Below, in pieces: positions 18,346 to 59,292 of a DNA stretch of 64,000 nt. Every line of letters begins with the position of its first letter. Positions within the stretch are counted from its first letter, which is position 1. The position numbers and the translations under genes are program-made. The stretch is taken from the NCBI GenBank assembly GCA_018882935.1, contig VERA01000001.1, forward strand, positions 7,505 through 71,504. The letters run 5' to 3'. The notes beneath the pieces are model-generated. The model saw only the letters and a program-made list of their open reading frames with translations. It did no database searches and had not been told where the DNA came from. This DNA comes from Burkholderiaceae bacterium. GTDB lineage: Bacteria > Pseudomonadota > Gammaproteobacteria > Burkholderiales > Burkholderiaceae_D.

Positions 18346-19164
18346 TCAAGCAGCAACTGCAAGAATCATGTCGGATGGATCAATATAACAATCGACACGT
18401 GACAACGTAGCCAGCTGCAATGAATCGATGACCGAGTTATCAACGGTAACGACTAGAGGTAGTCCTTCATCCGTAGTAATGCAAAGCTCGGCTCTGCGTT
18501 CACCGCGTGTGAGTGTGTCGATCTGTCCTCGTAAGCGATTCAAGTCGCGACCTGTCGCTGCGGTTGGCGATGAAAGTTCTACCGCAGATGCCTTGATCAA
18601 GGCGAATACCTTAGCCCCGATGTTGAGCTGAAGCTCACGACAACTCTCGTGTGTGATTGATGCGATCAGCCTGAGCTTGTCGTTAACCAGCAGACCAATA
18701 TCGTCGTTCACCGGGCCTTGCAGCATCGAGACAATGACAGCGCCAAATTGATTACGAGCGCTGGTTTTCATTGCAATATCGGTTAGCCGCGCATAGTCAG
18801 CCTCAAGATCATTGGCTAAACGATTCAATCGATGAACAAACCGCGCATGCTCGGCGCTGATCAAATCAAAATTTTTGAGCAGCTGCTTACCACGCTCGGT
18901 CAGCTGCGTGCGGCCACCGCCTTTGCCGCCAGCGTGCCGCTCGAGCAGTCGATCGCCAGTGAGTTGCGTCATTTGATCGATCGTGTCCCATGCACCTTTG
19001 TAGCTGTAGCCGGCGATTTTTGCCGCCTTGGTCAGATTTTCGGTAAGTCCGATCTGCCTCAGCAGCTCTATGCGCTTTCGGTTGGCGAGCAGCGTGTCGC
19101 CGTGGCGCAGCGTCAGCTCGGCGTCTAGCGCCAGCGGTAATGAAACTTCGCGATACGTTGTCAT
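18346..19164 (-). CDS. modE: Molybdate-responsive regulator (wHTH plus two TOBE/Mop domains)
   Basis: GYSYKGAWDTI, GGKGGGRTQLTERG, TSARNQF, ITHES and ALIKAS motifs. Confidence 0.93.
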   Translation of the reverse strand: MTTYREVSLPLALDAELTLRHGDTLLANRKRIELLRQIGLTENLTKAAKIAGYSYKGAWDTIDQMTQLTGDRLLERHAGGKGGGRTQLTERGKQLLKNFDLISAEHARFVHRLNRLANDLEADYARLTDIAMKTSARNQFGAVIVSMLQGPVNDDIGLLVNDKLRLIASITHESCRELQLNIGAKVFALIKASAVELSSPTAATGRDLNRLRGQIDTLTRGERRAELCITTDEGLPLVVTVDNSVIDSLQLATLSRVDCYIDPSDMILAVAA

Positions 19165-19369
19165 TTACAAAATAATGCAGCTATTAAGTGAGCATTTTCT
19201 AATCTACCCGAGTTGACAAGCAAGATAAACCTCAATAAACTTTGATCAAGATTTACTCAAGTATATTTAGATAGTAATTCCCCTTGTTAGTGGGCGATTT
19301 ATCCGCGATATAGGCGCGTCCATCAAAATTTACCTATATACATTTTCAAGGCCAAAAAAACTCAATGAT

Positions 19370-20767
19370 ATGAAGAATTCGCTGAACCACATCGCGCTGG
19401 CGCTTGGCCTGTTTGCCAGTACTCAGCTGGCGGCACATGCCGGCGACGACGTCAAAATCCTGCTCGAGTTGTTGCTCGAAAAAGGCGTCATCACGCAAGA
19501 CGAGTTTGATCAGAAACTGAAGCTGGCGCGCGAGAAGGAAGAGATTCGCGCCTTCAACGAGGCGCAGGATATTCGTCGAGCGAATCGTGAGATCGACAAG
19601 CGCGCCGAGGACGAGCGCAAATTCAAAACCCAAATCTATGGGCAGCTTTCGGCTGGCTACTACCAAGCGTCGAACATGAGCTCGGCTAACCTGGATGCTT
19701 CGGGCATGAGCGACCAGCCCAAGGGAAATAACCGCGCCGGACTGAAAGTGTCGCGCGAACTGAACGCCGACAACACCGTGATGGTGACGCTGGAGTCAAA
19801 TTTCTCAGCGCGTACCGGCGCAATTGGGCGCGACGCCGCCGGTTACGGAACCGCAAATAACAATACACCCGGCGCCACGCTGCTGGATCGCGAGGCAAAT
19901 GTTCGTTGGATATCGAAAGAGTACGGCACGTTCATCCTCGGGCGCGGGCCCACGCTGCAAAACGATCTATCGGGTGCATTCGACGCACGACAGAACTGGA
20001 ATTTCGGTGGCCTCAAGCCGATCGGTCGCTACATCGGCTCGCATAGCGCGAATGGCGTAAACCGCGCCGATAAATTATTTCGCTATATCTCTCCGAATTG
20101 GAACGGATTTAATCTTGATACCGGCGTCTCATTTGGCGGCGTACCCGGTAATGATGAACGAGGCACGAATTACTACCTAGGCGGTCGCTACAAAAACGGA
20201 AACTTCGAGCTAGGCTACAACCATGCGGAGGTCCGGCTAGGGGGTAGCAGTCCCGCGAATACACCGACCAGTCAGCAAGCGGTAAACAACCGCGTCGATT
20301 TCCTTGCTGCGAAATACAGCATGGAGCAGCTAACGCTGAATACCGGTTTTATCATGACCCGTAATCCTTCTACGGCGTCAGGTGGCAGCTTTAATACCTT
20401 CGTCACCAACGGGCGAGTCAATGCCAATACATGGTTCGCAGGCGCGGTCTACCGGTTTACACCAACGATCAGTTGGAACCTCGGCTACTACGCAGTTGAT
20501 GACCGTACTGTGCAGACCAGCATCAATAAAAATAATGACGTGCAAATGCTGGCCACAGGCCTGACTTATACACCGTACAAAGATTGGGATTTTTTCATTG
20601 ACTATGCCACCGCCCGACGACAGGCGGGCGCGACAGGCGCGTTCACGATCTACGACAAATGGGGCCCTGATACGGGAACACCCTGCGCGAGTAGTACAGG
20701 CACAGGTTGCTCGGAGAGCAAATCAAGTCAGACAGGCGTTTCGGTTGGTGCTCAGTACAAGTTCTAG
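19370..20767 (+). CDS. Outer-membrane porin (Gram-negative porin type) with an N-terminal helical extension
   Basis: Signal peptide, IYGQL, VTLESNF, REANV, FILGR, NRAD...YISP, C-terminal GAQYKF barrel signal. Confidence 0.8.
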   Translation: MKNSLNHIALALGLFASTQLAAHAGDDVKILLELLLEKGVITQDEFDQKLKLAREKEEIRAFNEAQDIRRANREIDKRAEDERKFKTQIYGQLSAGYYQASNMSSANLDASGMSDQPKGNNRAGLKVSRELNADNTVMVTLESNFSARTGAIGRDAAGYGTANNNTPGATLLDREANVRWISKEYGTFILGRGPTLQNDLSGAFDARQNWNFGGLKPIGRYIGSHSANGVNRADKLFRYISPNWNGFNLDTGVSFGGVPGNDERGTNYYLGGRYKNGNFELGYNHAEVRLGGSSPANTPTSQQAVNNRVDFLAAKYSMEQLTLNTGFIMTRNPSTASGGSFNTFVTNGRVNANTWFAGAVYRFTPTISWNLGYYAVDDRTVQTSINKNNDVQMLATGLTYTPYKDWDFFIDYATARRQAGATGAFTIYDKWGPDTGTPCASSTGTGCSESKSSQTGVSVGAQYKF

Positions 20768-20800
20768 CGCAACCTGCTACTGGCATCCAAATTAATCGCT

Positions 20801-21613
20801 ATGAAATTTACAGGTATGAGGTCAACTGACATGACATTTACTGACACCACATCATCCGGCAAAAGATTCGGCATCATGCTGTCGATTGCACTCTGTCTAT
20901 TGACCCTGACGAGCGCTTGGGCTGCCGAGGTAAAAGTCGCCGTCGCCGGTAATTTTGCGCAACCGATGAAAGATATCGCTACCGAATTCGAAAAAGATAC
21001 CGGGCACAAACTTAATTTGTCGCAGGGCGCTACCGGCAAGTTTTACGCGCAAATTAGTAATGGTGCCCCATTCGATGTACTGCTCTCAGCTGATGATGAA
21101 ACGCCCGCCAAGCTGATTAAAGAAGGGAAAGCCGTATCAGGCAGCCAATTCACCTATGCGATCGGGCGGTTGGTGCTGTGGTCACCGGACGATAAGTTGG
21201 TGGATCAAGGCGGTGCTGTGCTGAAGAGCGACAAGTTCAAGTTCTTGTCGATCGCCAATGCGAAGGTTGCACCGTACGGACGTGCTGCAGTCCAGACGAT
21301 GCAGAAATTAGGTGTACTGAGCAGCATTGAGCCGCGCGTCGTTCAGGGTGAGAGCATCACGCAAACACATCAATTTGTCTCAACCGGTAATGCGCAGCTT
21401 GGCTTTGTTGCCTTGTCGCAGGTGTGGGATGGTAGCAAGATCAAGTCCGGTTCTGCCTGGATTGTGCCGGAATCGATGCATGAACAACTCAAGCAAGATA
21501 TCGTACTACTCAACCCGGGTAAGGAATCGCCGGCCGCCTCAGCTCTGATCGATTATATAAAGTCAGAAAAATCAAAAAAAATTATCGAGCGCTACGGCTA
21601 CAGACTTCCTTGA
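20801..21613 (+). CDS. modA: Molybdate ABC transporter substrate-binding protein
   Basis: VAVAGNF, GATGKFYAQISNGAPFDVLLSAD, APYGRAA, VSTGNAQLGFVALS; start may be 20830. Confidence 0.93.
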   Translation: MKFTGMRSTDMTFTDTTSSGKRFGIMLSIALCLLTLTSAWAAEVKVAVAGNFAQPMKDIATEFEKDTGHKLNLSQGATGKFYAQISNGAPFDVLLSADDETPAKLIKEGKAVSGSQFTYAIGRLVLWSPDDKLVDQGGAVLKSDKFKFLSIANAKVAPYGRAAVQTMQKLGVLSSIEPRVVQGESITQTHQFVSTGNAQLGFVALSQVWDGSKIKSGSAWIVPESMHEQLKQDIVLLNPGKESPAASALIDYIKSEKSKKIIERYGYRLP

Positions 21614-21643: not shown

Positions 21644-23149
21644 CTAAGCGCTTTGTCGGGCTGGCTGCATCATGTCACCTCGATCAACAGGTAGACGAAC
21701 CTCGAAACTGGTACCAACACCCGGGCGACTATCAAAATGAATATCGCCAAGATGCGCGTTCACAACCGTTTTTGAGAGCCACAAGCCGACGCCCATTCCT
21801 TCGGTTTTGCTGGTCTTGAATAATTCAAAAATCGATTGCTGCATGTCCTCGCTGATGCCGGGGCCGTTGTCGATAACCTTGAGTATGACTTCGCCTTCAT
21901 CACAGCTGCTGCTCACCTCAACTCGACCTGGCTTAACTGATGCCTCTGATGCGGCTTCGACAGCATTATTCATGACATTCAGTACAACCTGCTGTAGCTG
22001 GGTCTGATCGCCAACTACGGGGCAAGGGTCGCCGAATTGATATGCCAACTGCACCTGCTTGGATGCGGCATATGGCATGATCAAAGCTGCACAGTCGCGC
22101 ACCAGATCATTGATATCCAACCTGACCATGGCACCGCTTCTATCTTCGAATAGCTTGCGTAGCTTGACGATAATGTCAGCAGCACGACGATTATCTTGAT
22201 TCACCTGCAGTACGAGCTGCTTGATCTGATCGTCTGTCTCAGGCGTTGATTCTTTCTCGAGCAGCAGTCGTTCGACCAACTGTGTATTCAAGCGTATCGA
22301 GCACAGTGGCTGATTCAGCTCATGCGCCAAACTCGCCACCAGCGCACCCATAGATGCTGATTTATTCGACAAGGTCAGCTGGCGGATAATCTCTTCGCGC
22401 TCATGCAGAAGATGCTGTAATTCTTGCTGGTGCTGTCCTAGTAAGGCTTGACGTGTCTCGGCTGCTGATAGCTCACGTTCAGTCTGTAGACGGTCAGCCT
22501 CGCGGCGCTCGAGAAAGATGCGTAAAAAGCCAATATTTGTGAGCGGTATACAAATCATCTGGCCGAGTACCATCAATACTTGATCGGGCGTGTTGGCATA
22601 AATATCCATCGACTGCGGATCAACTGCAATACCGATCGCGCGTACCGCCTGCGTCGAACAAAATCCGATGCCTGCGGCCATCAACAGATCGGCGCCCAAG
22701 CTCTGCTTGTTACCTTTCAACCAATAACCGAGCAGAAAGTAGTCGATCAGGATGAATGCATAAAATCCGAAGTAATACACCCGTAGGTAATACTCGGATA
22801 CGCCAGCATGGTAGGCGCTGATGAAGGTACTTAAAAAAATGATGGTAGTGAGCGCATAAAACCATTTCGCTTGGGCAGACACCTTGCCAAAGAACATGCG
22901 TAATGCAATGCAGCGACCTGCGTTCCCAACCACCATCGGAATCTGTCCGATGTAGATGAATGCCCACTCGCTAACCACGCCCCGCATTGACAGCGGAATT
23001 ACCGCAATCCCGCTGAGTACTCCGGAAAGACACCAAAGTCTGACTTGTGAATCACGTTGCTCCGACAACGCAAACCAGATTACTGCGTGCATGACCAGAT
23101 AGACCATGCAGATCATGAGTATGACGGTTTGTGGATGAAAATACGGCAT
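21644..23149 (-). CDS. Sensor histidine kinase with a ~7-TM N-terminal domain
   Basis: H-box LAHELNQPL, N-box LNVMNNA, DNGPGI and GMGVGL; hydrophobic N-terminal ~215 aa; no PAS domain seen. Confidence 0.92.
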   Translation of the reverse strand: MPYFHPQTVILMICMVYLVMHAVIWFALSEQRDSQVRLWCLSGVLSGIAVIPLSMRGVVSEWAFIYIGQIPMVVGNAGRCIALRMFFGKVSAQAKWFYALTTIIFLSTFISAYHAGVSEYYLRVYYFGFYAFILIDYFLLGYWLKGNKQSLGADLLMAAGIGFCSTQAVRAIGIAVDPQSMDIYANTPDQVLMVLGQMICIPLTNIGFLRIFLERREADRLQTERELSAAETRQALLGQHQQELQHLLHEREEIIRQLTLSNKSASMGALVASLAHELNQPLCSIRLNTQLVERLLLEKESTPETDDQIKQLVLQVNQDNRRAADIIVKLRKLFEDRSGAMVRLDINDLVRDCAALIMPYAASKQVQLAYQFGDPCPVVGDQTQLQQVVLNVMNNAVEAASEASVKPGRVEVSSSCDEGEVILKVIDNGPGISEDMQQSIFELFKTSKTEGMGVGLWLSKTVVNAHLGDIHFDSRPGVGTSFEVRLPVDRGDMMQPARQSA

Positions 23150-23203
23150 GATGGATAGACCGTGATTGACGGCTATTGAGGCAGCCCTGCGTGAGTCACT
23201 AGC

Positions 23204-24265
23204 CTATTGCGTGCTCGTTTCCTGCGGCTTTTCTGAATCTGGCGGAATAATCGATTGTGTCGTAAAAAGTTGTATCGACACGGCACCAGTGGGCACTTTT
23301 ACCTTGAGACCCTGCAAATAAATTTGCAGCTTGGGGAGTTGTGCGGAATGAATTGTGTATGGGGGCTTGCCCGATAGGCTGGTCGTTGCGCCAGCTTTTA
23401 ATTTCAGCGGTTTGGCCGCACCCGTCGCGTCGACTACGCACAGTGTTGACTCGGTGTAGCTGCCTAAATACAAGCGTGTATAGGTCGCTCTGACTTGCGT
23501 GGGCGCCCAACGCGCCACATCCCCACCCGCGCTAACCGCACAAGGGTCTGGCCCCTCGTCGGGGTTTGTAGATGCAGCCGTAGCTGTAGCCGACGGTGCA
23601 TCTTCCGCTGCGCTTGATGGTGCTGATGTAGCAGGACTTGGTGGTACCGCAGCAGCCGTTACCGACGCGGGGGCAGCAGTTTCCGCTGTTGGCGATGCAG
23701 TTTCAGTAGCCACTGGCTCAACGGTAGTCTCAACGACTGGCTCGGCTACTGGTTTTGGTGTAGGGGTCAGACCGCGCAAGATGGAGAAGCTAAGCACGAG
23801 CGCGACGACGATCACCGCAAGCAGCGGAAGACGCCGGGATTCAAAGTTTGATCGGTTAGCCGGCTGAGACATTATCCCTTTACCAGTCTCGACCGGTAAT
23901 GTCGCTGGAGCTGTCGCCGTCGCCATTATCGGGCTCGCAACGGTATCAGTGAGGGTATTAGAGGCAGTCGACGGACGCGGTGCTTGCGGCACCAACTCGG
24001 ACAGGTCTATGCCAAATACATCGGCGTATTTGCGCGTTGCCAGTAACTTGTGACGAGCCCCGTAAAACGCACGCAGGCCGCCATTTTCGATTTGCTCGAT
24101 CTGCTCACGCGACAAGGTTGCCATTCGCGCTGCATCGGACACGGCCAGCCCGCGCTCAATACGCTCTTGCTTCAGGCGTGTGCCATCGATGACGACCTCA
24201 TCCGTGTCATTCAAGCTGACATCGACCGGACGCTGACGCCCACCGGATTCGAAGGGGCTACTCAC
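23204..24265 (-). CDS. RodZ-like protein (cytoplasmic HTH, single TM helix, Ala/Pro/Thr linker, periplasmic DUF4115-like domain)
   Basis: GTRLKQERIERGL...QIEQIENG...RKYADVFGID HTH; TM LPLLAVIVVALVLSFSIL; beta-rich C-terminus (LKAGATTSLSGKPPYTI). Confidence 0.75.
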   Translation of the reverse strand: MSSPFESGGRQRPVDVSLNDTDEVVIDGTRLKQERIERGLAVSDAARMATLSREQIEQIENGGLRAFYGARHKLLATRKYADVFGIDLSELVPQAPRPSTASNTLTDTVASPIMATATAPATLPVETGKGIMSQPANRSNFESRRLPLLAVIVVALVLSFSILRGLTPTPKPVAEPVVETTVEPVATETASPTAETAAPASVTAAAVPPSPATSAPSSAAEDAPSATATAASTNPDEGPDPCAVSAGGDVARWAPTQVRATYTRLYLGSYTESTLCVVDATGAAKPLKLKAGATTSLSGKPPYTIHSAQLPKLQIYLQGLKVKVPTGAVSIQLFTTQSIIPPDSEKPQETSTQ

Positions 24266-24618
24266 ACAAAAAATCGCTCGAGAGAGCTGACGCTAATCCC
24301 GTAGCCGCGCGCCAACCGAATCATGGTGCGAAAGCCTGGTTCACCGTAGGTGCCGCTTTCGATTTTCGAGATAGTGGGCAACGAGACACCGGAGGCGGGA
24401 TCACCGTTTAGCATGCTGGCAGTGACGACATCCGTCTTGGTCATGTGACGCGCCAGCCGTACCGCCAACAGATACTCGTGACATGCTCGGAATTGCGAGG
24501 GATCGATCCCCGCCAACCATTTGCGCGAAATCTCAGCGATGGCTTCAGAACGTCCGTTCAAATTTGGCGGAGCGATCTCAGGCGCTGACTCACTGAGCGC
24601 AATCGAATTCGGGGTCAT
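24262..24618 (-). CDS. XRE-family HTH protein
   Basis: VSLPTISKIESG...PGFRTMIRLARGYGIS; GGAG RBS before the ATG at 24618; GTGA overlap with the next gene. Confidence 0.8.
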   Translation of the reverse strand: MTPNSIALSESAPEIAPPNLNGRSEAIAEISRKWLAGIDPSQFRACHEYLLAVRLARHMTKTDVVTASMLNGDPASGVSLPTISKIESGTYGEPGFRTMIRLARGYGISVSSLERFFV

Positions 24619-24748
24619 GCGGGATACTCCATCATTATCTAATCTAGGTGAAGGGCGACGAGCATAGGTGTTAACGCCGCCGCGCGGTGAAAGATAGCTT
24701 CGCCAACGAAACTTCACCATAGCCCCTAAGGGTAACCCATGGCAGTGC

Positions 24749-25438
24749 TTAGGGGATAGCGTCCAGTATACGTATTAATTCGATAACATTTGCCGCGCCG
24801 AGCTTGCGCATCATATGCATGCGATGAAGCTTGACCGTACGCTCGGCAATTCCCAGCTGATTGGCTATCTGCTGATTCATGTAGCCTTGTGATACCAAGC
24901 GTGCAATTTGCGCCTCTCGCGCCGATAGCGACGCAAACCGCGCCTCACTATCGGTTGAGGACAAGGATTTACGAATATCCGCCAAATGTCGCTGCAAGCC
25001 CTTGTCAACAGCATCGAGTAACTGACCATCATCGAAAGGCTTGATCAAAAAATCAAGTGCCCCGGCTTTCATTGCCTGCACTGCCTCACCAGCGCTGCTG
25101 CCGCCGCTCATAAAAACAATAGGTACAGAATTAGCGCGCTGTTGTAGTTCACGTTGCAGATCAAGGCCGGATACGCAAGGCATCTTCACATCCAATAATA
25201 AACAGCGAGGACCGGGAAACATCGGATCAGCTCGCTGTTCAAATTCAATGAAATCGTCGGCCGAAGCGAACTCGGCAACCGCAAAACCCTGATGCAGCAA
25301 GATAGCTCGGATAGCGCTGCGCACCGACGGGTCATCATCGATAACCGAAATATGGCCACGCGCATGACGCATGGCCTCTTGCTCGTCTTGTACAGTGATA
25401 ATGGCGCGAGCAGAACGGCGCATAGTGGACCTGCCCAC
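24749..25438 (-). CDS. FixJ/NarL-type response regulator (receiver plus LuxR HTH)
   Basis: ISVIDDD, LLLDVKMP (phospho-Asp), DFLIKPF, LSAREAQIA...IANQLGIAERTVKLHR; true start probably 25423 or 25372. Confidence 0.92.
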   Translation of the reverse strand: MGRSTMRRSARAIITVQDEQEAMRHARGHISVIDDDPSVRSAIRAILLHQGFAVAEFASADDFIEFEQRADPMFPGPRCLLLDVKMPCVSGLDLQRELQQRANSVPIVFMSGGSSAGEAVQAMKAGALDFLIKPFDDGQLLDAVDKGLQRHLADIRKSLSSTDSEARFASLSAREAQIARLVSQGYMNQQIANQLGIAERTVKLHRMHMMRKLGAANVIELIRILDAIP

Positions 25439-25447
25439 TACACCTAA

Positions 25448-25744
25448 TTAATCCGCATGACCGGCTTCTGGTTTCAGAAGAAAACGAGGGATAGGAGGCG
25501 GCGCGACCAGCTCGGGATCTAACCGTCGTGAGGCCAGGGATATCGCATCAGGCTCGATCAGCAACCCAAGCTTGCGCGCGTATAGCTTGATCATCCGACT
25601 CATCTCGGACGCCGATGCAAACTGCTCAGCACCCGCTTCAATCGCCAGCACCTGACGCACGCTCATACCCGTGGTAGCAGCCACATCCTCGACAGATAGC
25701 GCCATCTGCTTGCGCTGCATTGCCAGCTTCTCACCAATCTCCAT
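25448..25744 (-). CDS. Small stand-alone RodZ-type HTH protein
   Basis: IGEKLAMQRKQMALSVEDVA...QVLAIEAG...IKLYARKLGL; no TM helix; GGAG RBS. Confidence 0.75.
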   Translation of the reverse strand: MEIGEKLAMQRKQMALSVEDVAATTGMSVRQVLAIEAGAEQFASASEMSRMIKLYARKLGLLIEPDAISLASRRLDPELVAPPPIPRFLLKPEAGHAD

Positions 25745-25952
25745 AGCCGCTCCGGTCGGAGGTTTTATTATTATTGCAACAATCAACAATCAATCCCCTC
25801 TACGAGATTGTATTCAGATTATTGCAGGCGAGAAAGCATTTGTAGACTACCCTCAGGGGCATCCTGAGCAAAATTACGACTGCTGCGCGAGTTTGCGTTT
25901 GTGGTTAACCGACCTTGCAATTTAAGTCATTACCCTCAGCAGCCAGGGTCTG

Positions 25953-25991
25953 TTGACACCCGTAGAGGCGGTATATATCATGAGACATATC
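25953..25991 (+). promoter_or_regulatory. Sigma70 promoter of vapBC with an overlapping operator-like inverted repeat
   Basis: TTGACA (25953-25958), 17 nt, TATCAT (25976-25981); overlapped by the imperfect repeat GTATATATCATGAGACATATC. Confidence 0.7.
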
Positions 25992-26011
25992 ATCCATTCC
26001 GGAGAGGCGCC

Positions 26012-26263
26012 ATGGCCCAAACTGCCAAGATATTCACCACCGGCCGTAGCCAAGCGGTTCGTCTGCCACTGGAGTTTCGATTTGACGTCGCCGAAGTCTA
26101 TATTCGCCACGACCCCGTAACGGGAGATGTCGTGCTATCCCGCAAGCCAACCGATTGGCAAGGTTTAATCGACGTTGTGAAACTCAACGCCGAGGAAGAT
26201 TTGCTCATTGAGCGCCGCCAAACCAACACGCGTCGCGACCCCTTTGAGAACGACCAAAAATGA
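26012..26263 (+). CDS. vapB: VapB antitoxin (AbrB/MazE/SpoVT type)
   Basis: [24 protein letters not shown]; ATGA overlap with the PIN toxin gene. Confidence 0.92.
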
Positions 26264-26664
26264 GCCAGCACTACCTGCTCGATACCAACATTATCAGCCA
26301 CATCATGCAGGGCCGCGATAATGATTTATTGAATCGGCTAACCAACGTCGCTGTTGGTCAGGTGGCCATGTCCAGCGTGACCTTGGCCGAACTGGAATAC
26401 GGATTACACCGTAGAGGTCAACCAACTCGTCTAAGAAATGCGCTCACCCAAGTTCTATTGCGAATGGATGTGCTACCTTGGGATGAACAAGCGGCCGTCT
26501 GTTATGGTGAGCTATGCAACAACCTTGAATCAAAAGGCATTAATTTAAGTGATTTTGACATGATGATTGCGGCTCATGCAGCGTCAGTTAAATCAACGCT
26601 AGTCAGTCGTGACAAAGCTTTTTCTCAAATACCTACCGACCGCTTGAATCTAGAAATTTGGTAG
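26260..26664 (+). CDS. vapC: VapC PIN-domain ribonuclease toxin
   Basis: [28 protein letters not shown] and LVSRD acidic PIN residues. Confidence 0.93.
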
Positions 26665-26684
26665 CGTAGGCAAAACCAAAGGAT

Positions 26685-26761
26685 TGGCCTGCCCAGCACG
26701 ATTCGAACGTGCGACCTACGGCTTAGAAGGCCGTTGCTCTATCCAGCTGAGCTATGGGCAG
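26685..26761 (-). tRNA. tRNA-Arg (anticodon TCT)
   Basis: Reverse complement CTGCCCATAGCTCAGCTGGATAGAGCAACGGCCTTCTAAGCCGTAGGTCGCACGTTCGAATCGTGCTGGGCAGGCCA; 77 nt with encoded CCA. Confidence 0.97.
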
Positions 26762-26778
26762 AAGCGAGAGTGGAAGAT

Positions 26779-26811
26779 AAAAAAGCGGGTTGTCGATGAC
26801 AACCCGCTTTT
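26779..26811 (-). terminator. Intrinsic terminator-like hairpin between tRNA-Pro and tRNA-Arg
   Basis: AAAAGCGGGTTGTC-GAT-GACAACCCGCTTTT perfect stem, U-tract on the minus strand. Confidence 0.75.
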
Positions 26812-26817
26812 ATTTAC

Positions 26818-26894
26818 TGGTCGGAGTACAAGGATTCGAACCTTGGACCCCCTGCTCCCAAAGCAGGTGCGCTACCGGGCTGCGCCACACTCCG
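26818..26894 (-). tRNA. tRNA-Pro (anticodon TGG)
   Basis: Reverse complement CGGAGTGTGGCGCAGCCCGGTAGCGCACCTGCTTTGGGAGCAGGGGGTCCAAGGTTCGAATCCTTGTACTCCGACCA. Confidence 0.97.
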
Positions 26895-53675: not shown

Positions 53676-54911
53676 CTAGTAGGTTTCAACATGGAAACGC
53701 CCTTCAACCAGCATCTTCTGATGCAGGTCTGCCCACACCATTCCGGCACCCTCACAAATCGTTCTCAACGCATCCATCACACCCGCCTCCATGCCTTTCA
53801 CACCGCAGATATAAATGTAGGTATCTGCATTCAGTAGTTCGGCAACCGCAAGTGATGATGCGCGCAACTGATCTTGCACATAGGTTTTGGGTTCGTTATC
53901 AGCACGCGAGAATGCAAGATGAATGTCAATGAAGCTCTGCGGCAGTTTGCGTAGCGGTCCGAAGTACGGCAACTCACCCGGCTTTCGCGCGCCAAAGAAC
54001 AGCATCAGCTTGCCTTCAACCGGTGTGCCTTGCGCCATCAAGCGCCGCCGATACTCGGTCATGGCGCGCATCGGTGCTGCGCCTGTGCCAGTGCAGATCA
54101 TGATGATGTTAGAACCCGAATGGTTCGGCATCAGATAATGCGCGCCGAATGGTCCGGTGACTTGAACGGTGTCACCCTTTTGCAGATCGCACAAATAGTT
54201 AGACGCAACCCCGCGCACAGATTTGCCGTCGTGATCAAGCACGACACGCTTGACGGTCAACGAGAGGTTGTTATAGCCCGGTCGCTCACCATTGCGCGGG
54301 CTGGCCACAGAATAAAGTCGCAGGTAATGCGGCCGACCCGCATCATCCGTGCCCGGAGGAATAATGCCAATACTCTGCCCTTCCAATACCGGGAAATGCG
54401 CCTGACCAAAATCCAGCACGATATGACGTACATCGCTCTCTGCATCGGTATCCGTCAGGCGGTAGTTACCAGCAACGGTCGCTAGCAGAGGCTGTTTGAT
54501 GTCATACAGATGAAGGCTAGGCTCTGCCGCCGACCATGGTGCGCTAGATGAGGTAATCGATAGCGCAGCATTGTGCTGTGGCGGCGGCTCGATGGTGTCA
54601 GCAGCTACACCGTCGCCCGCAGTGAGTGGCTGCTGCTCGGGCAGCTCATCCCAACTGAACTGCTCAAGCACGCTGTAGGCCGCCGATTTCGACACCGTGC
54701 GCCAGTTATCAATCGACCCGGTAGGACACGGCGGCAGACACGCATTGCAACCATTACAGATGTTCGGGTCGACTACATAGTTACGATCATCATGCGAGAT
54801 CGCATCAATCGGGCAGGTGTCCTCACAGGTGTTGCAACGTATACAAACCTCAGGATCAATCAGGTGCTGACGTATCAGCGCCTCGGCGTCAGTAGAGCCC
54901 ATAGCTGTCAA
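53676..54911 (-). CDS. boxA: Benzoyl-CoA 2,3-epoxidase reductase subunit
   Basis: Two 4Fe-4S motifs ([24 protein letters not shown]), FNR domain [23 protein letters not shown]; start 54911 (TTG) or 54902 (ATG). Confidence 0.95.
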
Positions 54912-54914
54912 TCA

Positions 54915-56342
54915 TTAGTTGAAGCGCACGTACTCAAAGTCGATAGGCTGACGATTGATGCCGATAGGCGGTGGTGCGATCCAGTTCGCCATCTTGCCCG
55001 GCTCAACCACGCGGCCCATCAACGACGCTACATAAGCGCGGTCTTCCTCGGTGGGCAGCCACTGACGCACATGTGCCTGCCACTCGGCCTCGGAGATCAC
55101 TTGCCCTTGTGGAGACACGCGTAAACCGGCGAAGCTACCAATGTGGCGATTGAAGGCCTTGTGCGGCGCTTGCAGCCGGAACGGCAGGCCCGCTTTCTCG
55201 ATCACTTTATTCCAGCGACCGATACCCGCGATGGAGTCCTTAATGTAATCATCACGCAGCACCTCATTGAGCGCATTCAGCATGGGTACTTCGCGCTCCA
55301 CCAATTTATCGCCCTGTACTTCCAGAATCTTGTAATGATCGCCCTTGAGTTGATGATCATCCGTACGCTTGGTCTCTTCATAGCGGCCTTTCAAACCGGT
55401 CGCGTAAAAAGTCGCTGCGTTGGAAGACTGATCAGCGCCAAACAAGTCAATCGTCACGCTAAAGTGGAAGTTAAGGTAGCGCTGCAGAGTCGGCAGATCA
55501 ATCACACCGAGCTGTCGCAGTTGCTCCGGGTCTTCTGTGCTGTGCTGCTTCATGACCTCGCAGGTGCGCTGAATCGTACGCGAGACACCCGACTCACCGA
55601 CAAACATGTGATGCGCCTCTTCAGTGAGCATGAAACGGCAGGTACGCGAGAGCGGATCAAAACCGGACTCGGCAAGCGCGCACAATTGGAATTTACCATC
55701 ACGATCGGTGAAGTAAGTAAACATGTAGAACGCCAGCCAATCGGGCGTCTCTTCATTAAAGGCCTGCAGAATACGCGGGTTATCTTGCGAGCCGGAGTTG
55801 CGATGCAGTAGTGCCTCGGCTTCCTCACGACCATCACGACCAAAATACTTGTGCAGCAAGTAAACCATCGCCCACAAATGGCGACCCTCTTCCACATTAA
55901 TCTGGAACAGATTACGCAGATCGTATTGTGATGGGCAGGTCAAGCCTAAATGACGCTGCTGCTCGACGGATGCCGGTTCGGTATCACCTTGCGTCACAAT
56001 AATCCGGCGCAGATTAGCGCGATGCTCACCTGGCACTTCTTGCCATGCGGCTTCGCCTTTGTGCTCACCAAAATTCACCTTGCGGTCTGCTTCAGCTGCA
56101 TTCAAGAAAATGCCCCAACGATAATCGGGCATCTTCACATGACCAAACTGTGCCCAACCTTCCGGCGTGGTGTTGATCGCTGTACGCAGATAGACATCGA
56201 AATTCTGCGAGCCATCGGGGCCCATCTCATTCCACCACTGCAGGTAGTTTGGCTGCCAATGCTCGAGCGCGCGCTGCAAAGCACGGTCTTCCGAGAGGTT
56301 GACGTTATTCGGTATTTTTTCGCTGTAATCGATGGCGCTCAC
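54915..56342 (-). CDS. boxB: Benzoyl-CoA 2,3-epoxidase di-iron subunit
   Basis: DYSEKIPNNV, QGDTEPASVEQ, EEGRH and EEAHH iron ligands; GTG start at 56342 with an AGGAG RBS. Confidence 0.96.
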   Translation of the reverse strand: MSAIDYSEKIPNNVNLSEDRALQRALEHWQPNYLQWWNEMGPDGSQNFDVYLRTAINTTPEGWAQFGHVKMPDYRWGIFLNAAEADRKVNFGEHKGEAAWQEVPGEHRANLRRIIVTQGDTEPASVEQQRHLGLTCPSQYDLRNLFQINVEEGRHLWAMVYLLHKYFGRDGREEAEALLHRNSGSQDNPRILQAFNEETPDWLAFYMFTYFTDRDGKFQLCALAESGFDPLSRTCRFMLTEEAHHMFVGESGVSRTIQRTCEVMKQHSTEDPEQLRQLGVIDLPTLQRYLNFHFSVTIDLFGADQSSNAATFYATGLKGRYEETKRTDDHQLKGDHYKILEVQGDKLVEREVPMLNALNEVLRDDYIKDSIAGIGRWNKVIEKAGLPFRLQAPHKAFNRHIGSFAGLRVSPQGQVISEAEWQAHVRQWLPTEEDRAYVASLMGRVVEPGKMANWIAPPPIGINRQPIDFEYVRFN

Positions 56343-56404
56343 GCTATCTCCTGTGGGAATGACTCGATCCAATAAGGGTTATTATTTTTTAAACGTTTTA
56401 TTAC

Positions 56405-58063
56405 CTACACACGCTCGAATTCGAATTTCGCCTTGCTGCCGGTTCCGTACACTTTCAAGGCACCCGACTCTCCGACCGCATTCGGACGATTGAAGATCCA
56501 GTTCTGCCAAGCAGACAAACGACCAAACACCCGCGTGAACATATTCTCTTGACCGTTGAAGCGAAGATTCGCCTCCATACCAGTGAGTGCATCCGGCGAC
56601 ATACTGGCGCGCTCTTCAAGCGCAAGGCGAATCTCATCGGCCCAGTCGATATCGTCCGGGTTTGCCGTGATTAAGCCCAGTTCCATTGCTTTATCCGCAT
56701 CCAATGCTTGTCCAAGCAATGCCTTCAATTCGTTGAGCTTGGCTGCATCATCATAGAAGCGACGTGCCAGACGTCCCTGCCCGGTGATCATGGGCAGCAC
56801 ACCAAAATTCATCGCAGACAAGGTGATGACCGGCGCATCTTGTGGCGCGTCGGGCAAACTGAGCATGTAGCTGCGATCAGCCGCAAACGCCAGCTCGGCC
56901 AGCGTGCCGGCGAAGCAGGAATCCTGATCAATCAGTGCGAACAGACTGCGAGACGAGACATCAATCCGCGCTAAGGTACGACGCATCAAGCCGAGTGTTT
57001 CGCGCACCAGCCAATGCGAGGCATGTTGCTGCATGCTGGCATCGCACGCCAGTACATGCTCGCGGTGACCCGCAGTTTTAAGTATCCAGATACCCAGCTC
57101 GATTTCATTGGTACGTAGATGCAGGATCGCATCATCCAACTCGCGTGCCATTTGTAGTGGCCACCAGTGCACACCGGCCGCTTCGATTCCCGCAATATCA
57201 TCAGGCTGAGGTGTTGCAGGCGAGTGTACGGTGATGGTCGCACTGCGCGCATCGCGGTCCAGCAACACGTCGACATAGCGGTAGCGCACACCTCGCTCGG
57301 TGAATTCGCGTTGCAGCGGCGTTAGCTGCACACCCGTCGCTTGCGCTGCTCGATCACTCTGCGCTGCCAATACCTCGGCGCGCTCGCGGACCGCTTGCGC
57401 AAATTGCGCTGGCTTGGCGATCTCATCGACCAGTCGCCACTCTTTGGCACGCTGGCCGCGAATACCTTCGGAGGTCGTGCAAAAAATATCGGCGTGATCA
57501 TGCCGTACCTTGCGCTTGTCGGTCAGTCGCGTTAATCCACCGGTGCCAGGCAGCACGCCGAGCAACGGTACCTCAGGCAAACTCACTGAGGATGATCTAT
57601 CGTCGACCAAAAGAATTTCGTCGCAGGCAGCCGCTAGTTCATACCCACCACCGGCACAAGCACCGTTCACCGCGGCGAGGAATTTCAGACCGGAATAGCG
57701 ACTGGAATCTTCCAGACCATTGCGTGTCTCGTTGGTGAACTTGCAGAAGTTGACTTTCCAGGCGTGGCTGGATTTACCCAGCATAAAAATATTGGCGCCC
57801 GAGCAGAAGGTTCTATCCAAACCGCTACCAAGCACCACCACGCGTACCTTCGGATGCTCGAAACGGATTCGCTGTATGGCGTCATGCAGCTCAATATCGA
57901 CGCCGAGATCATAGGAATTCAACTTGAGCTTGTAGCCGTCACGCAGCCCACCGTCTTCGTTCACCGCCATGGTCAGGGTAGCGACCACACCATCCACGGC
58001 CAACGACCAGTGCCGGTAGCGCTCAGGGGTGGTTTGGTAGTCAACGACGAAGGATTCGCTCAT
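56405..58063 (-). CDS. boxC: 2,3-epoxybenzoyl-CoA dihydrolase (crotonase fold)
   Basis: LKLNSYDLGVDIELHDA, CSGANI, CAGGGYELA, LPEVPLLGVLPGTGG. Confidence 0.95.
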   Translation of the reverse strand: MSESFVVDYQTTPERYRHWSLAVDGVVATLTMAVNEDGGLRDGYKLKLNSYDLGVDIELHDAIQRIRFEHPKVRVVVLGSGLDRTFCSGANIFMLGKSSHAWKVNFCKFTNETRNGLEDSSRYSGLKFLAAVNGACAGGGYELAAACDEILLVDDRSSSVSLPEVPLLGVLPGTGGLTRLTDKRKVRHDHADIFCTTSEGIRGQRAKEWRLVDEIAKPAQFAQAVRERAEVLAAQSDRAAQATGVQLTPLQREFTERGVRYRYVDVLLDRDARSATITVHSPATPQPDDIAGIEAAGVHWWPLQMARELDDAILHLRTNEIELGIWILKTAGHREHVLACDASMQQHASHWLVRETLGLMRRTLARIDVSSRSLFALIDQDSCFAGTLAELAFAADRSYMLSLPDAPQDAPVITLSAMNFGVLPMITGQGRLARRFYDDAAKLNELKALLGQALDADKAMELGLITANPDDIDWADEIRLALEERASMSPDALTGMEANLRFNGQENMFTRVFGRLSAWQNWIFNRPNAVGESGALKVYGTGSKAKFEFERV

Positions 58064-58074
58064 GGGTCTCCCGA

Positions 58075-58135
58075 TGCAATATCATGCCTTCAAACAGCGA
58101 ACAGGAACTATATTGCGTGTCACGTGGTAAGTCAA
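58075..58135 (-). promoter_or_regulatory. Sigma70 promoter of boxC with candidate BoxR operator half-sites
   Basis: TTGACT (58135-58130), 17 nt, TATAGT (58112-58107); GCAATAT/ATATTGC inverted motifs at 58076 and 58110 overlap and follow the -10. Confidence 0.65.
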
Positions 58136-58254
58136 TGCTCGCTAAGTCAATGCTCTCCAGGTCAAATGCTCGGCAAGCACATTCTTGCGCAAATCAAGCG
58201 TGGGGCCAGTGAATGCCGAAGCGCTCGCCTATTGCCATTTCGGCAGCTTGCTGG

Positions 58255-59154
58255 TCAGTTGGCGATCTGTTCGCGCAATTGTGTAAGCGCCCGCTCTGGC
58301 GGCATAGCGCTGGTATCAAGCGTGAGGTCGGCTTTTGAGTAGAACTGGGCCCGGCTTTCCAGGATACGCTTCAGGTCATCCATCGCTTCCCTGTTGCCCG
58401 CCATGGGTCTGCGGTCACCTTGGGCAAGTACCCGGCTCATATGCTCTTCCGGAGTCGCCTTCAGCCTCACGGTGTAGCAATGGGTCAGCAGCAAATTGAA
58501 GGTTGCGGGTTCGGAGACGATGCCGCCGGGCGTTGCAATCACCACGCGCGAGTGAGCGCGGATAACTTCTTCAAGCGCGCGCTGCTCGTAACGGCGGTAG
58601 GCGGTCTGGCCGTACAGCGCATGAATCTCCGCAATACCGCAGCCCGCCAGCGCCTCGATCTGGCCGGACAGCTCGATGAACGGCACGCCCTGCTCAGTGG
58701 CGAGCGCCCGACCGAGGCTGGATTTTCCGGCGCCACGCAGCCCGATCAGGGCAATACGCTGACGGCGGGTTGACTCGCTGGTCGGCTGCTCAAATAACAT
58801 CGCCAGCGCAGCGCGTGCCTTGGCCAGCTCTTCATCACTGCGGCCACGCAAGGTCTCGCGGATCATCAACCAATCCGGCGAGGAGGCAGCCTCATCGCCC
58901 GTCATCTCGGCCAACGAGCAATTGAGTACCACGCACAGCTGACGCAGAAACTGAATCGAGGCATTGCCGACCCCGGTCTCGACATTCGCCACGTGGCGCT
59001 CAGAGACATCGGCCAGCTTAGCCAGCGCTTTGCGCGTCAAGCCACGGCGGGCACGCAGCAGGCGAACACGCTCACCGAGAGCGCTGAGAAACGGATCTTT
59101 ATCTTGCCCCTCGGGGTGAGCAGTGCTTGAAGGTACTGGCTGGGTCGGTGGCAT
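58255..59154 (-). CDS. boxR: BoxR/BzdR-type regulator (XRE HTH plus shikimate-kinase-like benzoyl-CoA sensor)
   Basis: LGERVRLLRARRGLTRKALA...SERHVANVETG; IALIGLRGAGKSSLG; start reassigned to 59154. Confidence 0.92.
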   Translation of the reverse strand: MPPTQPVPSSTAHPEGQDKDPFLSALGERVRLLRARRGLTRKALAKLADVSERHVANVETGVGNASIQFLRQLCVVLNCSLAEMTGDEAASSPDWLMIRETLRGRSDEELAKARAALAMLFEQPTSESTRRQRIALIGLRGAGKSSLGRALATEQGVPFIELSGQIEALAGCGIAEIHALYGQTAYRRYEQRALEEVIRAHSRVVIATPGGIVSEPATFNLLLTHCYTVRLKATPEEHMSRVLAQGDRRPMAGNREAMDDLKRILESRAQFYSKADLTLDTSAMPPERALTQLREQIAN

Positions 59155-59182
59155 AGCTTCGGGTTGGTGCTTTCTTGACGCA

Positions 59183-59228
59183 AGCAAGATAGTGCATTTA
59201 CACTCAGTTTTGCATGCATTATAAGTTC
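59183..59228 (+). promoter_or_regulatory. Sigma70 promoter of the benzoate-CoA ligase gene with TGCA-type operator motifs
   Basis: TTTACA (59197-59202), 17 nt, TATAAG (59220-59225); AGCA-N6-TGCA at 59183-59196 and TGCATTATAAGTTC at 59215-59228. Confidence 0.6.
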
Positions 59229-59292
59229 GCAAAATAAAAATAACCAAGGCGCTTGGCCGACGCCCAAGCCAAGACCCGCACAGGAGACAACC

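Follow-up and report, generated by a model that had tools for sequence, protein, structure and literature searches.

Five minus-strand genes at positions 21644-25744 form an operon in an uncultured freshwater lineage of Burkholderiales (a betaproteobacterium), in the order sHTH (small soluble helix-turn-helix protein), RR (response regulator), XRE118 (XRE-family protein), RodZL (bitopic RodZ-superfamily protein) and HK (histidine kinase). Each of the five is a genuine gene, evolves under purifying selection and is transcribed, and the set has been kept together. By its sequence features, the long membrane protein RodZL belongs to a distinct family inside the RodZ superfamily, one without the MreB-contact signature. 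We tentatively prefer to read the cassette not as a cell-shape locus but as an autoregulated signalling circuit, with membrane-anchored RodZL acting as a modulator of the XRE regulator. No description of this module was found in the literature searched, in line with an earlier note on this DNA that had proposed an undescribed system. From that overall reading, co-conservation, co-transcription and the RodZ-like architecture also stand, but the link to shape and MreB and the five genes as the unit do not.

The cassette, its conservation and its expression

The earlier note had placed five genes on the minus strand here, and the open reading frames agree with it, coordinates included. Within the window (the whole stretch of DNA analysed, 64,000 nucleotides), the features are as follows.

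25848..25861, unstranded: palindrome site 1, reading TGCCCCTGAGGGTA along the cassette strand, a candidate operator or activator site
25818..25846, minus: predicted promoter upstream of the sHTH gene, sigma-70-like TCTACA-17-AATAAT with a TG extension
25448-25744, minus: sHTH, soluble HTH_25-type protein of 98 aa whose Pro-rich C-terminal tail (RRLDPE..PPPIPRFLLK) is conserved
24749-25438, minus: RR, NarL/FixJ-family response regulator, REC plus GerE/LuxR HTH
24721..24734, unstranded: palindrome site 2, between the RR and XRE genes, reading TTACCCTTAGGGGCTAT along the cassette strand
24262-24618, minus: XRE118, 118-aa XRE-family HTH protein (maximal open reading frame 24262-24720)
23204-24265, minus: RodZL, 353-aa bitopic RodZ-superfamily protein
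21644-23149, minus: HK, 501-aa sensor histidine kinase with ~7 membrane-embedded segments

The XRE gene most likely starts at the ATG at 24618, giving 118 aa, because all relatives are called at 117-121 aa, and the RR gene may start at the ATG at 25423 (224 aa). The stop codon of the XRE gene overlaps the RodZL start in a GTGA (24265-24262), a coupling already noticed earlier that recurs in every locus of the window's clade and in L019. It is not universal, since the two genes stand 26-394 nt apart, with no overlap, in distant lineages.

Thirteen distinct freshwater assemblies of relatives (14 loci) carry all five genes in identical order. Because this order is kept despite saturated synonymous sites, with dN/dS of 0.04-0.19 where computable, the cassette goes beyond chance. 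The co-conservation put forward earlier holds for these assemblies, but the five genes are not the unit of the more distant lineages: there the RR-XRE118 pair is the invariant core, found in 24 of 24 related loci, and RodZL is a frequent accessory, present in most lineages and absent from one (L021/L022, a syntenic sister lineage in which XRE118 stands without it). Wherever RodZL occurs among these 24 loci, XRE118 lies directly upstream of it. Adjacency of HK and sHTH is confined to the window's lineage and its nearest sister; sHTH occurs only at loci holding both RodZL and HK and is missing wherever either is. Loci L014-L018 have no HK homolog within 8 kb, and in L023 the genes called beside the RR-XRE-RodZL trio include no kinase.

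Co-transcription of the cassette genes is supported by river metatranscriptome contigs that cross the junctions between RodZL and XRE (23170-24371) and from XRE through RR to sHTH (24434-25675), these being Logan contigs, which are without strand information and could derive in part from DNA. Their depth is mostly ~6-24 over RodZL, XRE, RR and sHTH versus ~0-4 over HK and its flank, the kinase lying several-fold below RodZL. Depth falls upstream of ~25800, and one contig ends at 25792. The promoter ahead of sHTH was found by a consensus scan, and its sequence is kept across relatives.

A RodZ relative with a signature of its own

RodZ (YfgA in E. coli, YmfM in B. subtilis and S. aureus) is an MreB-binding scaffold of the elongasome, and RodZL shares its plan. 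It is likewise bitopic, N-in/C-out. An XRE/HTH_25-like N-terminal HTH (residues 28-92) is followed by one transmembrane helix (~146-166), a low-complexity periplasmic linker rich in Pro, Thr and Ala, and a C-terminal beta domain (~250-335) with recognisable RodZ_C core motifs (DAxGK, GxxPY and QG); in the AF2 model the HTH has a pLDDT of ~95 and the C-terminal domain one of ~93. The HTH aligns to that of E. coli RodZ with an hhalign probability of 98.6% (38% identity for the L017 protein), and the C-terminal profile aligns weakly to the E. coli RodZ_C core over residues 264-313. As a matter of architecture and of remote homology in both domains, then, the long protein is RodZ-like, as described earlier. 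Automatic annotation at JGI calls some family members RodZ.

The family thresholds set the two apart. RodZL scores 24.0 on Pfam HTH_25 (cut-off 24.6), 13.3 on RodZ_C (cut-off 23.9; E. coli RodZ reaches 85.5) and 15.8 on the NCBIfam RodZ equivalog (cut-off 208), missing all three. The two proteins had been called RodZ-type, a term that fits sHTH, which passes HTH_25 at 33.7 bits, but not the long protein by its Pfam scores. Residues F60 and Y64 of E. coli RodZ bind MreB (PMC4047632; PMC13584716). They align with H72 and A76 of RodZL, which are invariant in a family that has a near-invariant FY motif of its own (F67, Y68) and the periplasmic Cys pair noted earlier (C242/C276, invariant in 63-68 family members). 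With the contact aromatics so replaced, the proposed link to MreB and cell shape is not borne out. The gene does lie outside the rlmN-rodZ-ispG-hisS locus, as had been remarked, with ispG, hisS or rlmN as a neighbour in 0 of the 24 related loci. Unlike that of RodZ, the RodZL gene always stands beside an RR and an XRE gene, and it is dispensable in L021/L022.

A Foldseek search with the RodZL N-terminal domain gives DNA-binding XRE proteins as best matches, among them SinR bound to DNA (3zkc, TM 0.74); by fold, its HTH is as close to XRE proteins in their DNA-bound form (SinR, C.BclI, 434) as to the RodZ N-domain 3fym. The small soluble protein sHTH shows 73-99% identity across the clade and 60% to its L019 counterpart (dN/dS 0.08). 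It aligns to the RodZL-family HTH (hhalign 84%, E 7e-6), and BLASTP against E. coli RodZ yields nothing at E<=100. Its positions matching F60/Y64 are E47/M51 in the profile alignment and M and Y in MAFFT. The idea that it serves as an MreB decoy finds no support here; that it competes with RodZL is possible.

The regulators and their candidate sites

The kinase and response regulator resemble the NarL/FixJ-family systems (FixLJ, NarXL, TtrSR) in their core domains. HK combines HisKA (30.8 bits), with the H-box SLAHELNQPL, and HATPase_c (90.3 bits), both over their Pfam cut-offs, and is 78-91% identical within the clade, 70% in L019 and 61% in L021. RR carries Response_reg (88.7 bits) and GerE (70.5 bits), its translation showing an acidic pocket DDD and the phospho-acceptor motif LLLDVKMP. 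In NCBIfam, the regulator is best matched by FixJ, TtrR and NarL, and the kinase core by AtoS and FixL. Unlike in those systems, however, no equivalog cut-off is reached (FixJ 159.7 bits against 255), three extra HTH proteins are interleaved in the cassette, and the sensor is neither PAS nor periplasmic: by hydropathy, residues 1-214 of HK form seven hydrophobic segments with very short loops, and they find no match in a Pfam search. XRE118 (HTH_3 31.7 bits, cut-off 23) is, on sequence identity, the most conserved component of the module, at 81-92% in the clade and 66-79% in distant loci versus 29-35% for full-length RodZL in the latter, with a dN/dS of 0.036. Its family is small, with 144 matches, and among the matches listed all share at least 61% identity.

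Both regulatory regions of the cassette hold a 14-bp palindrome of the consensus T[GA]CCC-N4-GGG[CT]A, accounting for 2 of the 5 matches in the 64-kb window. The predicted promoter's -35 element directly adjoins site 1, whose centre is ~43.5 nt upstream of the inferred transcription start. The clade loci examined conserve this site, L005 with one mismatch, and L019 has it too; similar sites precede the RR gene in L015, L016 and L018. Site 2 lies 15 nt past the RR stop codon, upstream of the XRE gene. All clade loci that were aligned or scanned carry its motif TT[GA]CCC-N4-GG[GT]nCTAT, L005 and L011 with one mismatch each, and so do L014-L019, L021 and L023, including lineages of 43-65% GC. Palindromes at the operon promoter and after the RR gene suggest that the operon is autoregulated. 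NarL-type heptamers read TACYYMT. The CCC/GGG half-sites are reminiscent of them, which makes phosphorylated RR the most likely binder, although an XRE dimer would fit 14 bp equally well.

A tentative circuit and its alternatives

In the circuit we favour, the 7-TM kinase would sense a membrane-associated cue and phosphorylate RR. A dimeric regulator, most likely phosphorylated RR, would then bind the palindromes, activate the operon promoter and control expression of XRE118 and RodZL. XRE118 would be the downstream DNA-binding regulator and RodZL its membrane-anchored modulator, whose disulfide-bonded, RodZ_C-like periplasmic domain would read envelope or redox state. The cytoplasmic HTH of RodZL might serve as a protein-binding module, as the RodZ HTH does for MreB, holding or releasing XRE118 in the style of an anti-sigma factor or partner switch, and sHTH, where present, may compete for the same partner, given its resemblance to the RodZL HTH. 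Such an arrangement recalls anti-sigma factors and SinI/SinR antagonism, in which a regulator gene is followed by a coupled gene for a candidate titrating membrane or small protein, and a small soluble paralogous domain such as sHTH is available as a candidate competitor. The cassette differs in that it involves no sigma factor and nothing in it is related in sequence to RseA, MucA or SinI; the interaction itself is hypothetical.

Alternatively, and rather unlikely in our view, RodZL could be a membrane-tethered transcription factor, a one-component regulator like ToxR or CadC whose HTH binds the palindromes directly and whose Cys-pair domain senses redox or envelope state, with XRE118 and sHTH as separate or antagonistic regulators. 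ToxR and CadC are bitopic with a periplasmic Cys pair, as is RodZL, whose own pair could form a regulatory disulfide by analogy; the Foldseek matches and the length of the palindromes, which suits an XRE dimer, point the same way. The likeness to ToxR, CadC and the membrane-bound XRE-type sensor BcrR, in which a DNA-binding-type cytoplasmic domain is tethered to the membrane, is one of function only: ToxR and CadC have OmpR-type winged helices and unrelated periplasmic domains, and BcrR has four transmembrane segments and no periplasmic domain. L021 and L022, both without RodZL, keep site 2, and RodZL therefore cannot be the sole binder of that site. In addition, RodZL never occurs without XRE118, and its family descends from a scaffold with a protein-binding rather than a DNA-binding HTH.

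It is improbable that RodZL is instead an accessory co-sensor of the kinase acting through TM-TM contacts, comparable to the LiaF and BceAB-type partners of intramembrane-sensing kinases. RodZL would supply a periplasmic domain because HK, with its very short loops, has none, and its gene lies directly upstream of the kinase gene in the window's clade and L019. Yet L021/L022 keep the kinase although they have no RodZL, six distinct loci (L014-L018, L023) keep RodZL with no kinase gene beside it, and the RNA depth of the two genes differs several-fold.

There is similarly little chance that an ordinary two-component system and unrelated XRE-family regulators are neighbours by inheritance only, syntenic in a narrow lineage and with no joint function. 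The full-cassette loci are all close relatives (GlmM 83-94% identical) with common flanking synteny, so shared ancestry explains part of the co-conservation, and the HK and sHTH adjacency is specific to the lineage. Against this, the RR-XRE-RodZL trio is found again in three distinct chromosomal settings and over a range of 43-65% GC, the cassette stays intact while flanking cargo and mod genes vary, RNA contigs span the junctions, and a single palindrome type occupies both regulatory regions.

Least of all is RodZL likely to be a working morphogenetic RodZ, the only or a second, conditional one, that binds MreB while the two-component system tunes shape: domain order, topology, HTH homology, RodZ_C core motifs and the name given to some members would suit it, but the missed RodZ_C and equivalog cut-offs, the family-invariant H72/A76, the foreign gene neighbourhood and the absence of the gene from L021/L022 all speak against it.

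Because RodZL is without the MreB-binding residues of RodZ, the cassette appears to be a signalling module, so far uncharacterised, and not a shape locus; in it, a RodZ-superfamily protein may act on an XRE regulator from the membrane.

Genes of the cassette and their transcription

The cassette consists of five open reading frames (ORFs) arranged head-to-tail on the minus strand (21644-25744), in the order sHTH, RR, XRE, RodZL and HK:

25744-25448, minus strand: sHTH, a small HTH_25 protein, 98 aa; Pfam HTH_25, 33.7 bits (cut-off 24.6)
25438-24749, minus strand: RR, a NarL/FixJ-type response regulator, 229 aa; Response_reg, 88.7 (cut-off 30.2), and GerE, 70.5 (cut-off 23.5)
24720-24262, minus strand: XRE, maximal ORF, 152 aa; HTH_3, 31.7 bits (cut-off 23)
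24265-23204, minus strand: RodZL, a RodZ-like protein, 353 aa; its GTG start overlaps the XRE stop as GTGA
23149-21644, minus strand: HK, a histidine kinase, 501 aa; HisKA, 30.8 (cut-off 26.9), and HATPase_c, 90.3 (cut-off 26.4)

The earlier note had described these genes correctly. Since the XRE protein is called at 117-121 aa in every relative, its true start is most likely the ATG at 24618, which gives a product of 118 aa (XRE118). Residues 1-214 of HK, which have no Pfam match, hold seven hydrophobic segments with very short loops between them, and the translation contains the H-box SLAHELNQPL. That of RR contains the DDD and LLLDVKMP motifs of the acidic pocket and phospho-acceptor Asp. 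The best NCBIfam match of RR is FixJ (NF006900) at 159.7 bits, under the cut-off of 255, and the protein would class as FixJ-like, yet not FixJ. The two-component part is an ordinary pair of the NarL/FixJ type, with no score reaching an equivalog threshold, and that HK and RR are cognate is suggested by their adjacency in the window clade, its sister locus L019 and the related locus L021 only. When compared with PDB sequences, neither XRE118 (nearest, the XRE-family protein 2ofy, E 0.12), nor RodZL, nor sHTH (best, the chlamydial RodZ homolog CT009, E 0.039) has a significant match. The C-terminal third of sHTH (25448-25540) encodes a conserved Pro-rich tail, RRLDPE[VL]VxPPPIPRFLLKxEA, which lies outside the HTH fold and could be a docking peptide.

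The locus is present in river metatranscriptomes, with contigs spanning RodZL-XRE (23170-24371) and XRE-RR-sHTH (24434-25675). Contig depth is mostly ~6-24 over sHTH, RR, XRE and RodZL versus ~0-4 over HK and modA, the contigs being strandless and possibly including some DNA carry-over. Depth falls upstream of ~25800, which fits a promoter-like site, TCTACA-17-AATAAT, at 25846-25818. Depth also falls several-fold from RodZL to HK (~6-11 to ~0-4) across the 54-nt spacer at 23150-23203, in which no terminator is predicted; partial termination, processing or differential stability could be the cause. In one metatranscriptome run, a contig skips 22653-23156.

Distribution, conservation and genomic setting

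RodZL has its closest homologs exclusively in metagenome-assembled genomes (MAGs) from freshwater or rivers, labelled Burkholderiaceae, Oxalobacteraceae or Betaproteobacteria, and in a scan of one genome per GTDB species the protein was found in only eight, all of them such MAGs. All sequencing runs that contain the sequence are metagenomes; the organism is known from metagenomes only, and no cultured host of the cassette was found. A plasmid-borne origin was considered and set aside, as XRE118 has no tblastn match in PLSDB. All five genes occur in the same order in 13 distinct related assemblies (L001-L012 and L019, of which L001 and L002 are near-identical), and each of these keeps the 4-nt overlap between XRE and RodZL. 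Synonymous sites are saturated in comparisons of the window with L001 and with L019 (dS at least 1.4). For the genes with a dS estimate in these two comparisons (all except HK in both, and except sHTH as well against L019), dN/dS is 0.04-0.19. Related loci fall into four arrangements:

L001-L012 and L019 (window clade and nearest sister): on the glmM/tRNA side, as in the window; sHTH, RR, XRE, RodZL and HK
L021/L022: window-like synteny, GlmM 83% identical; RR, XRE and HK, with no RodZL and no sHTH
L014-L018 (43-65% GC): between dksA and an ABC-transporter/acyl-CoA-ligase cluster; RR, XRE and RodZL
L023/L024: between an unknown gene and the same transporter cluster; RR, XRE and RodZL

A further locus, L020, has the L019 arrangement in part and breaks off within the RR gene. 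The kinase-less loci also have no sHTH homolog. By tblastn, L014-L018 have no HK homolog within 8 kb, and no kinase is called beside the trio in L023/L024. Small ORFs upstream of RR in these relatives were examined as divergent sHTH genes and rejected, having neither an HTH nor similarity to sHTH. The distant kinase-less loci encode RodZL proteins ~29-35% identical to that of the window over their length, with XRE118 at 66-79% and RR at 49-55%. The XRE118 family is small (144 clusters), with at least 61% identity among the matches listed.

The one part kept in all lineages is the RR-XRE118 core. RodZL often accompanies it, and wherever RodZL is seen, XRE118 lies immediately upstream. Adjacency of HK is lineage-specific, and sHTH occurs only where RodZL and HK are both present. 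Co-conservation of the five genes, without which the earlier note would fall, stands for the 13 related assemblies, where order is also kept, but not for the wider set of loci, which share only RR-XRE.

The RodZL ortholog of L019 (10357-11607 of that locus) is 416 aa long, with a longer and more divergent linker. It is 42% identical to the window protein in the best BLAST segment and 53% globally, and is under Pfam thresholds for everything but marginal HTH matches. This divergence shows rapid evolution of the periplasmic part. Downstream of the RodZL gene, every kinase-less relative has an LIV-type ABC transporter and an AMP-binding ligase, and in L014-L018 and L023 the RodZL gene is separated from the Peripla_BP_6 ABC transporter gene by 240-460 nt. 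The promoter region of this transporter cluster carries its own conserved element, ATGCAACATCGATAnCGGTTGAC, unlike the cassette palindrome described below, which is not present upstream of the transporter operon in these relatives. The cluster may be a target or simply a neighbour.

On one side the cassette is flanked by modE, a porin gene and modA, and on the other by vapBC, tRNA-Arg, tRNA-Pro, glmM, folP and ftsH. In the window, a VapBC toxin-antitoxin pair lies between the cassette and the two tRNA genes:

~26011-26263, strand not given: vapB, within the region 25901-26894, which also takes in the two tRNA genes
26260-26664, strand not given: vapC, the PIN-domain toxin of the VapBC pair
26685-26761, strand not given: tRNA-Arg, beside VapBC
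26818-26894, strand not given: tRNA-Pro, beside tRNA-Arg

What fills this slot differs among relatives, with a Phd/ParE pair in L003, a 389-aa HemolysinCabind protein in L001 and L002, or other VapC variants, which marks it as a small variable hotspot beside the tRNAs. While the DNA between glmM and the cassette varies in this way (VapBC, Phd/ParE or HemolysinCabind), the cassette is intact throughout. Most relatives have the modE-porin-modA block (18346-21613) beside the HK gene; L003, L011, L012 and L021 lack it, and there the HK gene directly abuts a Crp/FNR-type regulator gene. Since the mod block comes and goes, the cassette is not tied to molybdate uptake.

The palindrome T[GA]CCC-N4-GGG[CT]A occurs twice in the cassette:

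25848-25861: site 1, abutting the -35 hexamer of the predicted operon promoter, its centre ~43.5 nt upstream of the inferred start
24721-24734: site 2, 15 nt past the RR stop codon and ahead of XRE118

Class II activator sites typically lie near -43. Across the clade loci examined, and in L019 as well, both sites are kept, apart from single mismatches in one or two loci. In the form TTGCCC-N4-GGGnCTAT, site 2 is recognizable in every lineage, including L014-L018, L021 and L023, and the RR genes of L015, L016 and L018 are preceded by palindromes like site 1. The 12-nt palindrome core has five copies in the 64-kb window, two of which are sites 1 and 2. The CCC-N4-GGG core is also present at 59106, in the divergent promoter region of what appear, by ORF order and size, to be box-type benzoyl-CoA oxidation genes with a regulator and a benzoate-CoA-ligase-like gene (~53676-60849). 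The half-sites resemble NarL-type TACYYMT heptamers, and the palindromes could be bound by RR or by XRE118. The RR-XRE spacer (24619-24748) also contains a GC-rich inverted repeat, GGCGGC...GCCGCC, in which a few changes among relatives look compensatory; an RNA structure there found little support (RNAalifold covariation term -0.65, only 2 compensatory pairs).

Relationship of RodZL to RodZ

RodZ is known as a scaffold for morphogenesis that binds MreB, and its helix-turn-helix domain contacts protein and not DNA. The reference criteria for the family are Pfam HTH_25 (24.6 bits) together with RodZ_C/DUF4115 (23.9 bits), and the NCBIfam equivalog PRK10856 (208 bits). RodZL shares the bitopic topology of RodZ: a cytoplasmic HTH, one hydrophobic transmembrane segment (148-166), and, after a linker rich in Pro, Thr and Ala, a periplasmic C-terminal domain. 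Its HTH, at residues 28-92, scores 25.5 bits for HTH_19 and 24.0 bits for HTH_25, narrowly short of the cut-off of 24.6, and its RodZ_C score of 13.3 bits (E 0.08) is under 23.9. Against the RodZ equivalog it reaches 15.8 bits, short of 208. As a control, E. coli RodZ scores 85.5 bits for RodZ_C and 53.3 bits for HTH_25. Among 68 aligned members of the RodZL family, HTH_25 is detected at E<=0.01 in 50 and RodZ_C in only 15 (best 1.6e-5). When 1.84 billion cluster representatives were searched with a profile, 744 relatives passed E<=1e-3; of these, 167 passed E<=1e-10 and 31 passed E<=1e-30. Most are 290-390 aa long and match over the full length. Invariant in the family are C242, C276, D279, G299, P302, Q318 and G319, and F67-Y68 is near-invariant within FY-x3-HK-xx-A-x-[RK]K. 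No curated NCBIfam or PADLOC model matched the family, and a role in anti-phage defence was rejected, PADLOC giving generic HTH matches only.

Remote homology to RodZ is detectable in both domains. In an hhalign profile-sequence comparison with E. coli RodZ, the HTH domains align ungapped (probability 98.6%; residue n of the window protein corresponds to E. coli n-12), and residues 16-82 of E. coli RodZ match the RodZL protein of L017 at 38% identity. The C-terminal profile aligns weakly to the E. coli RodZ_C core at 264-313 (8.5 bits, E 1.2e-4 in a single comparison), with the motifs DAxGK, GxxPY and QG in common. An AF2 model built from a 63-sequence alignment, used in place of an earlier one from 24 close homologs that was too poor (pLDDT 48.5), predicts a five-helix HTH (pLDDT ~95), a helix at 145-165 and an all-beta C-terminal domain (~93). 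In Foldseek searches, the HTH matches SinR, C.BclI, 434 repressor, HipB and 3fym, the N-terminal domain of S. aureus YmfM/RodZ, equally; the C-terminal domain has no convincing match. With its shared architecture and remote homology in both domains, RodZL is a divergent member of the RodZ superfamily, and it lies outside the RodZ family in the Pfam and NCBIfam sense.

The earlier note had called for a comparison of the aromatic residues that contact MreB in true RodZ, and RodZL lacks them. F60 and Y64, in HTH helix 4 of E. coli RodZ, are described as critical for MreB binding in PMC4047632, which cites van den Ent et al. 2010, and an F60A mutant is used in PMC13584716. The ungapped hhalign alignment puts H72 and A76 in their place, and neither residue varies among 63 family members. 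RodZL does not look like an MreB partner. The equivalents in sHTH are E47/M51 by hhalign and M/Y by MAFFT, so that at most one aromatic is retained. The small protein resembles the HTH of the RodZL family (hhalign 84%, E 7e-6) and gives no BLASTP alignment with E. coli RodZ at E<=100. As the note had also supposed, RodZL lies outside the rlmN-rodZ-ispG-hisS context: E. coli RlmN, IspG and HisS queries have no tblastn match, and no rodZ/ispG/hisS/rlmN locus is found, in the window or the 23 related loci (424 kb in total). The neighbours of the RodZL gene in the loci inspected are always RR and XRE.

A possible signalling mechanism and its significance

A mechanism can be proposed for this conserved and transcribed operon. 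The 7-TM kinase would phosphorylate RR, and phosphorylated RR would bind the palindromes and autoregulate the operon, with XRE118 as the output regulator. RodZL, anchored in the membrane, would modulate XRE118: its RodZ_C-like domain, which is periplasmic and probably disulfide-bonded, would serve as the sensor and its HTH as a protein-binding module, by analogy with RodZ and MreB. The soluble sHTH would act as a competitor. As a whole, this scheme is tentative and falls somewhat short of an even chance of being right. A broader proposal is possible but doubtful, namely that such "FY/Cys-pair" RodZ-like proteins form an unrecognised branch of the RodZ superfamily, in which a scaffold of the cytoskeleton has been turned over to transcriptional signalling. 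These would be bitopic envelope or redox sensors whose HTH captures XRE118 and not MreB. They would work alongside a NarL/FixJ-type regulator, and some lineages would add a soluble HTH-only copy as competitor.

Several other readings deserve consideration. RodZL could be a membrane-tethered DNA binder resembling ToxR, given the predicted-fold similarity of its HTH to DNA-binding XRE domains; site 2 is nevertheless conserved in L021/L022, which have no RodZL, arguing against RodZL as the sole binder and leaving this reading unlikely. In the full cassette, HK directly follows RodZL, as might be expected of a co-sensor of the kinase, but the two genes occur independently of one another, which weakens this idea and makes it improbable. 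It is also rather improbable that the shared gene order reflects synteny alone, without joint function, as the trio of RR, XRE and RodZL recurs in three chromosomal contexts. That RodZL is a true morphogenetic RodZ, whose architecture it shares and whose F60 and Y64 it lacks, is very hard to credit. Returning to the modulator scheme, the cassette would then be a two-component/XRE regulatory module that appears to have taken up a repurposed RodZ-type membrane protein.

There is evidence for a distinct, conserved RodZ-like family, whose gene follows RR and a highly conserved XRE gene in every inspected neighbourhood. No paper was found in the literature that describes the FY/Cys-pair family or its association with a response regulator and a dedicated XRE protein, in line with the suggestion of the earlier note that the module is undescribed. 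The practical value is limited today, with no cultured host found and an ordinary two-component part. The full cassette is narrowly distributed, and its function is predicted from genomic context. If the scheme is true, it would be of interest to specialists as a case in which signal transduction, outside morphogenesis, has made use of the RodZ architecture, and it would add to the known membrane-anchored proteins that modulate transcription factors in Gram-negative bacteria. The module is found in abundant uncultured Burkholderiales of rivers and lakes, where it is expressed in situ, and so probably controls a response of ecological relevance.
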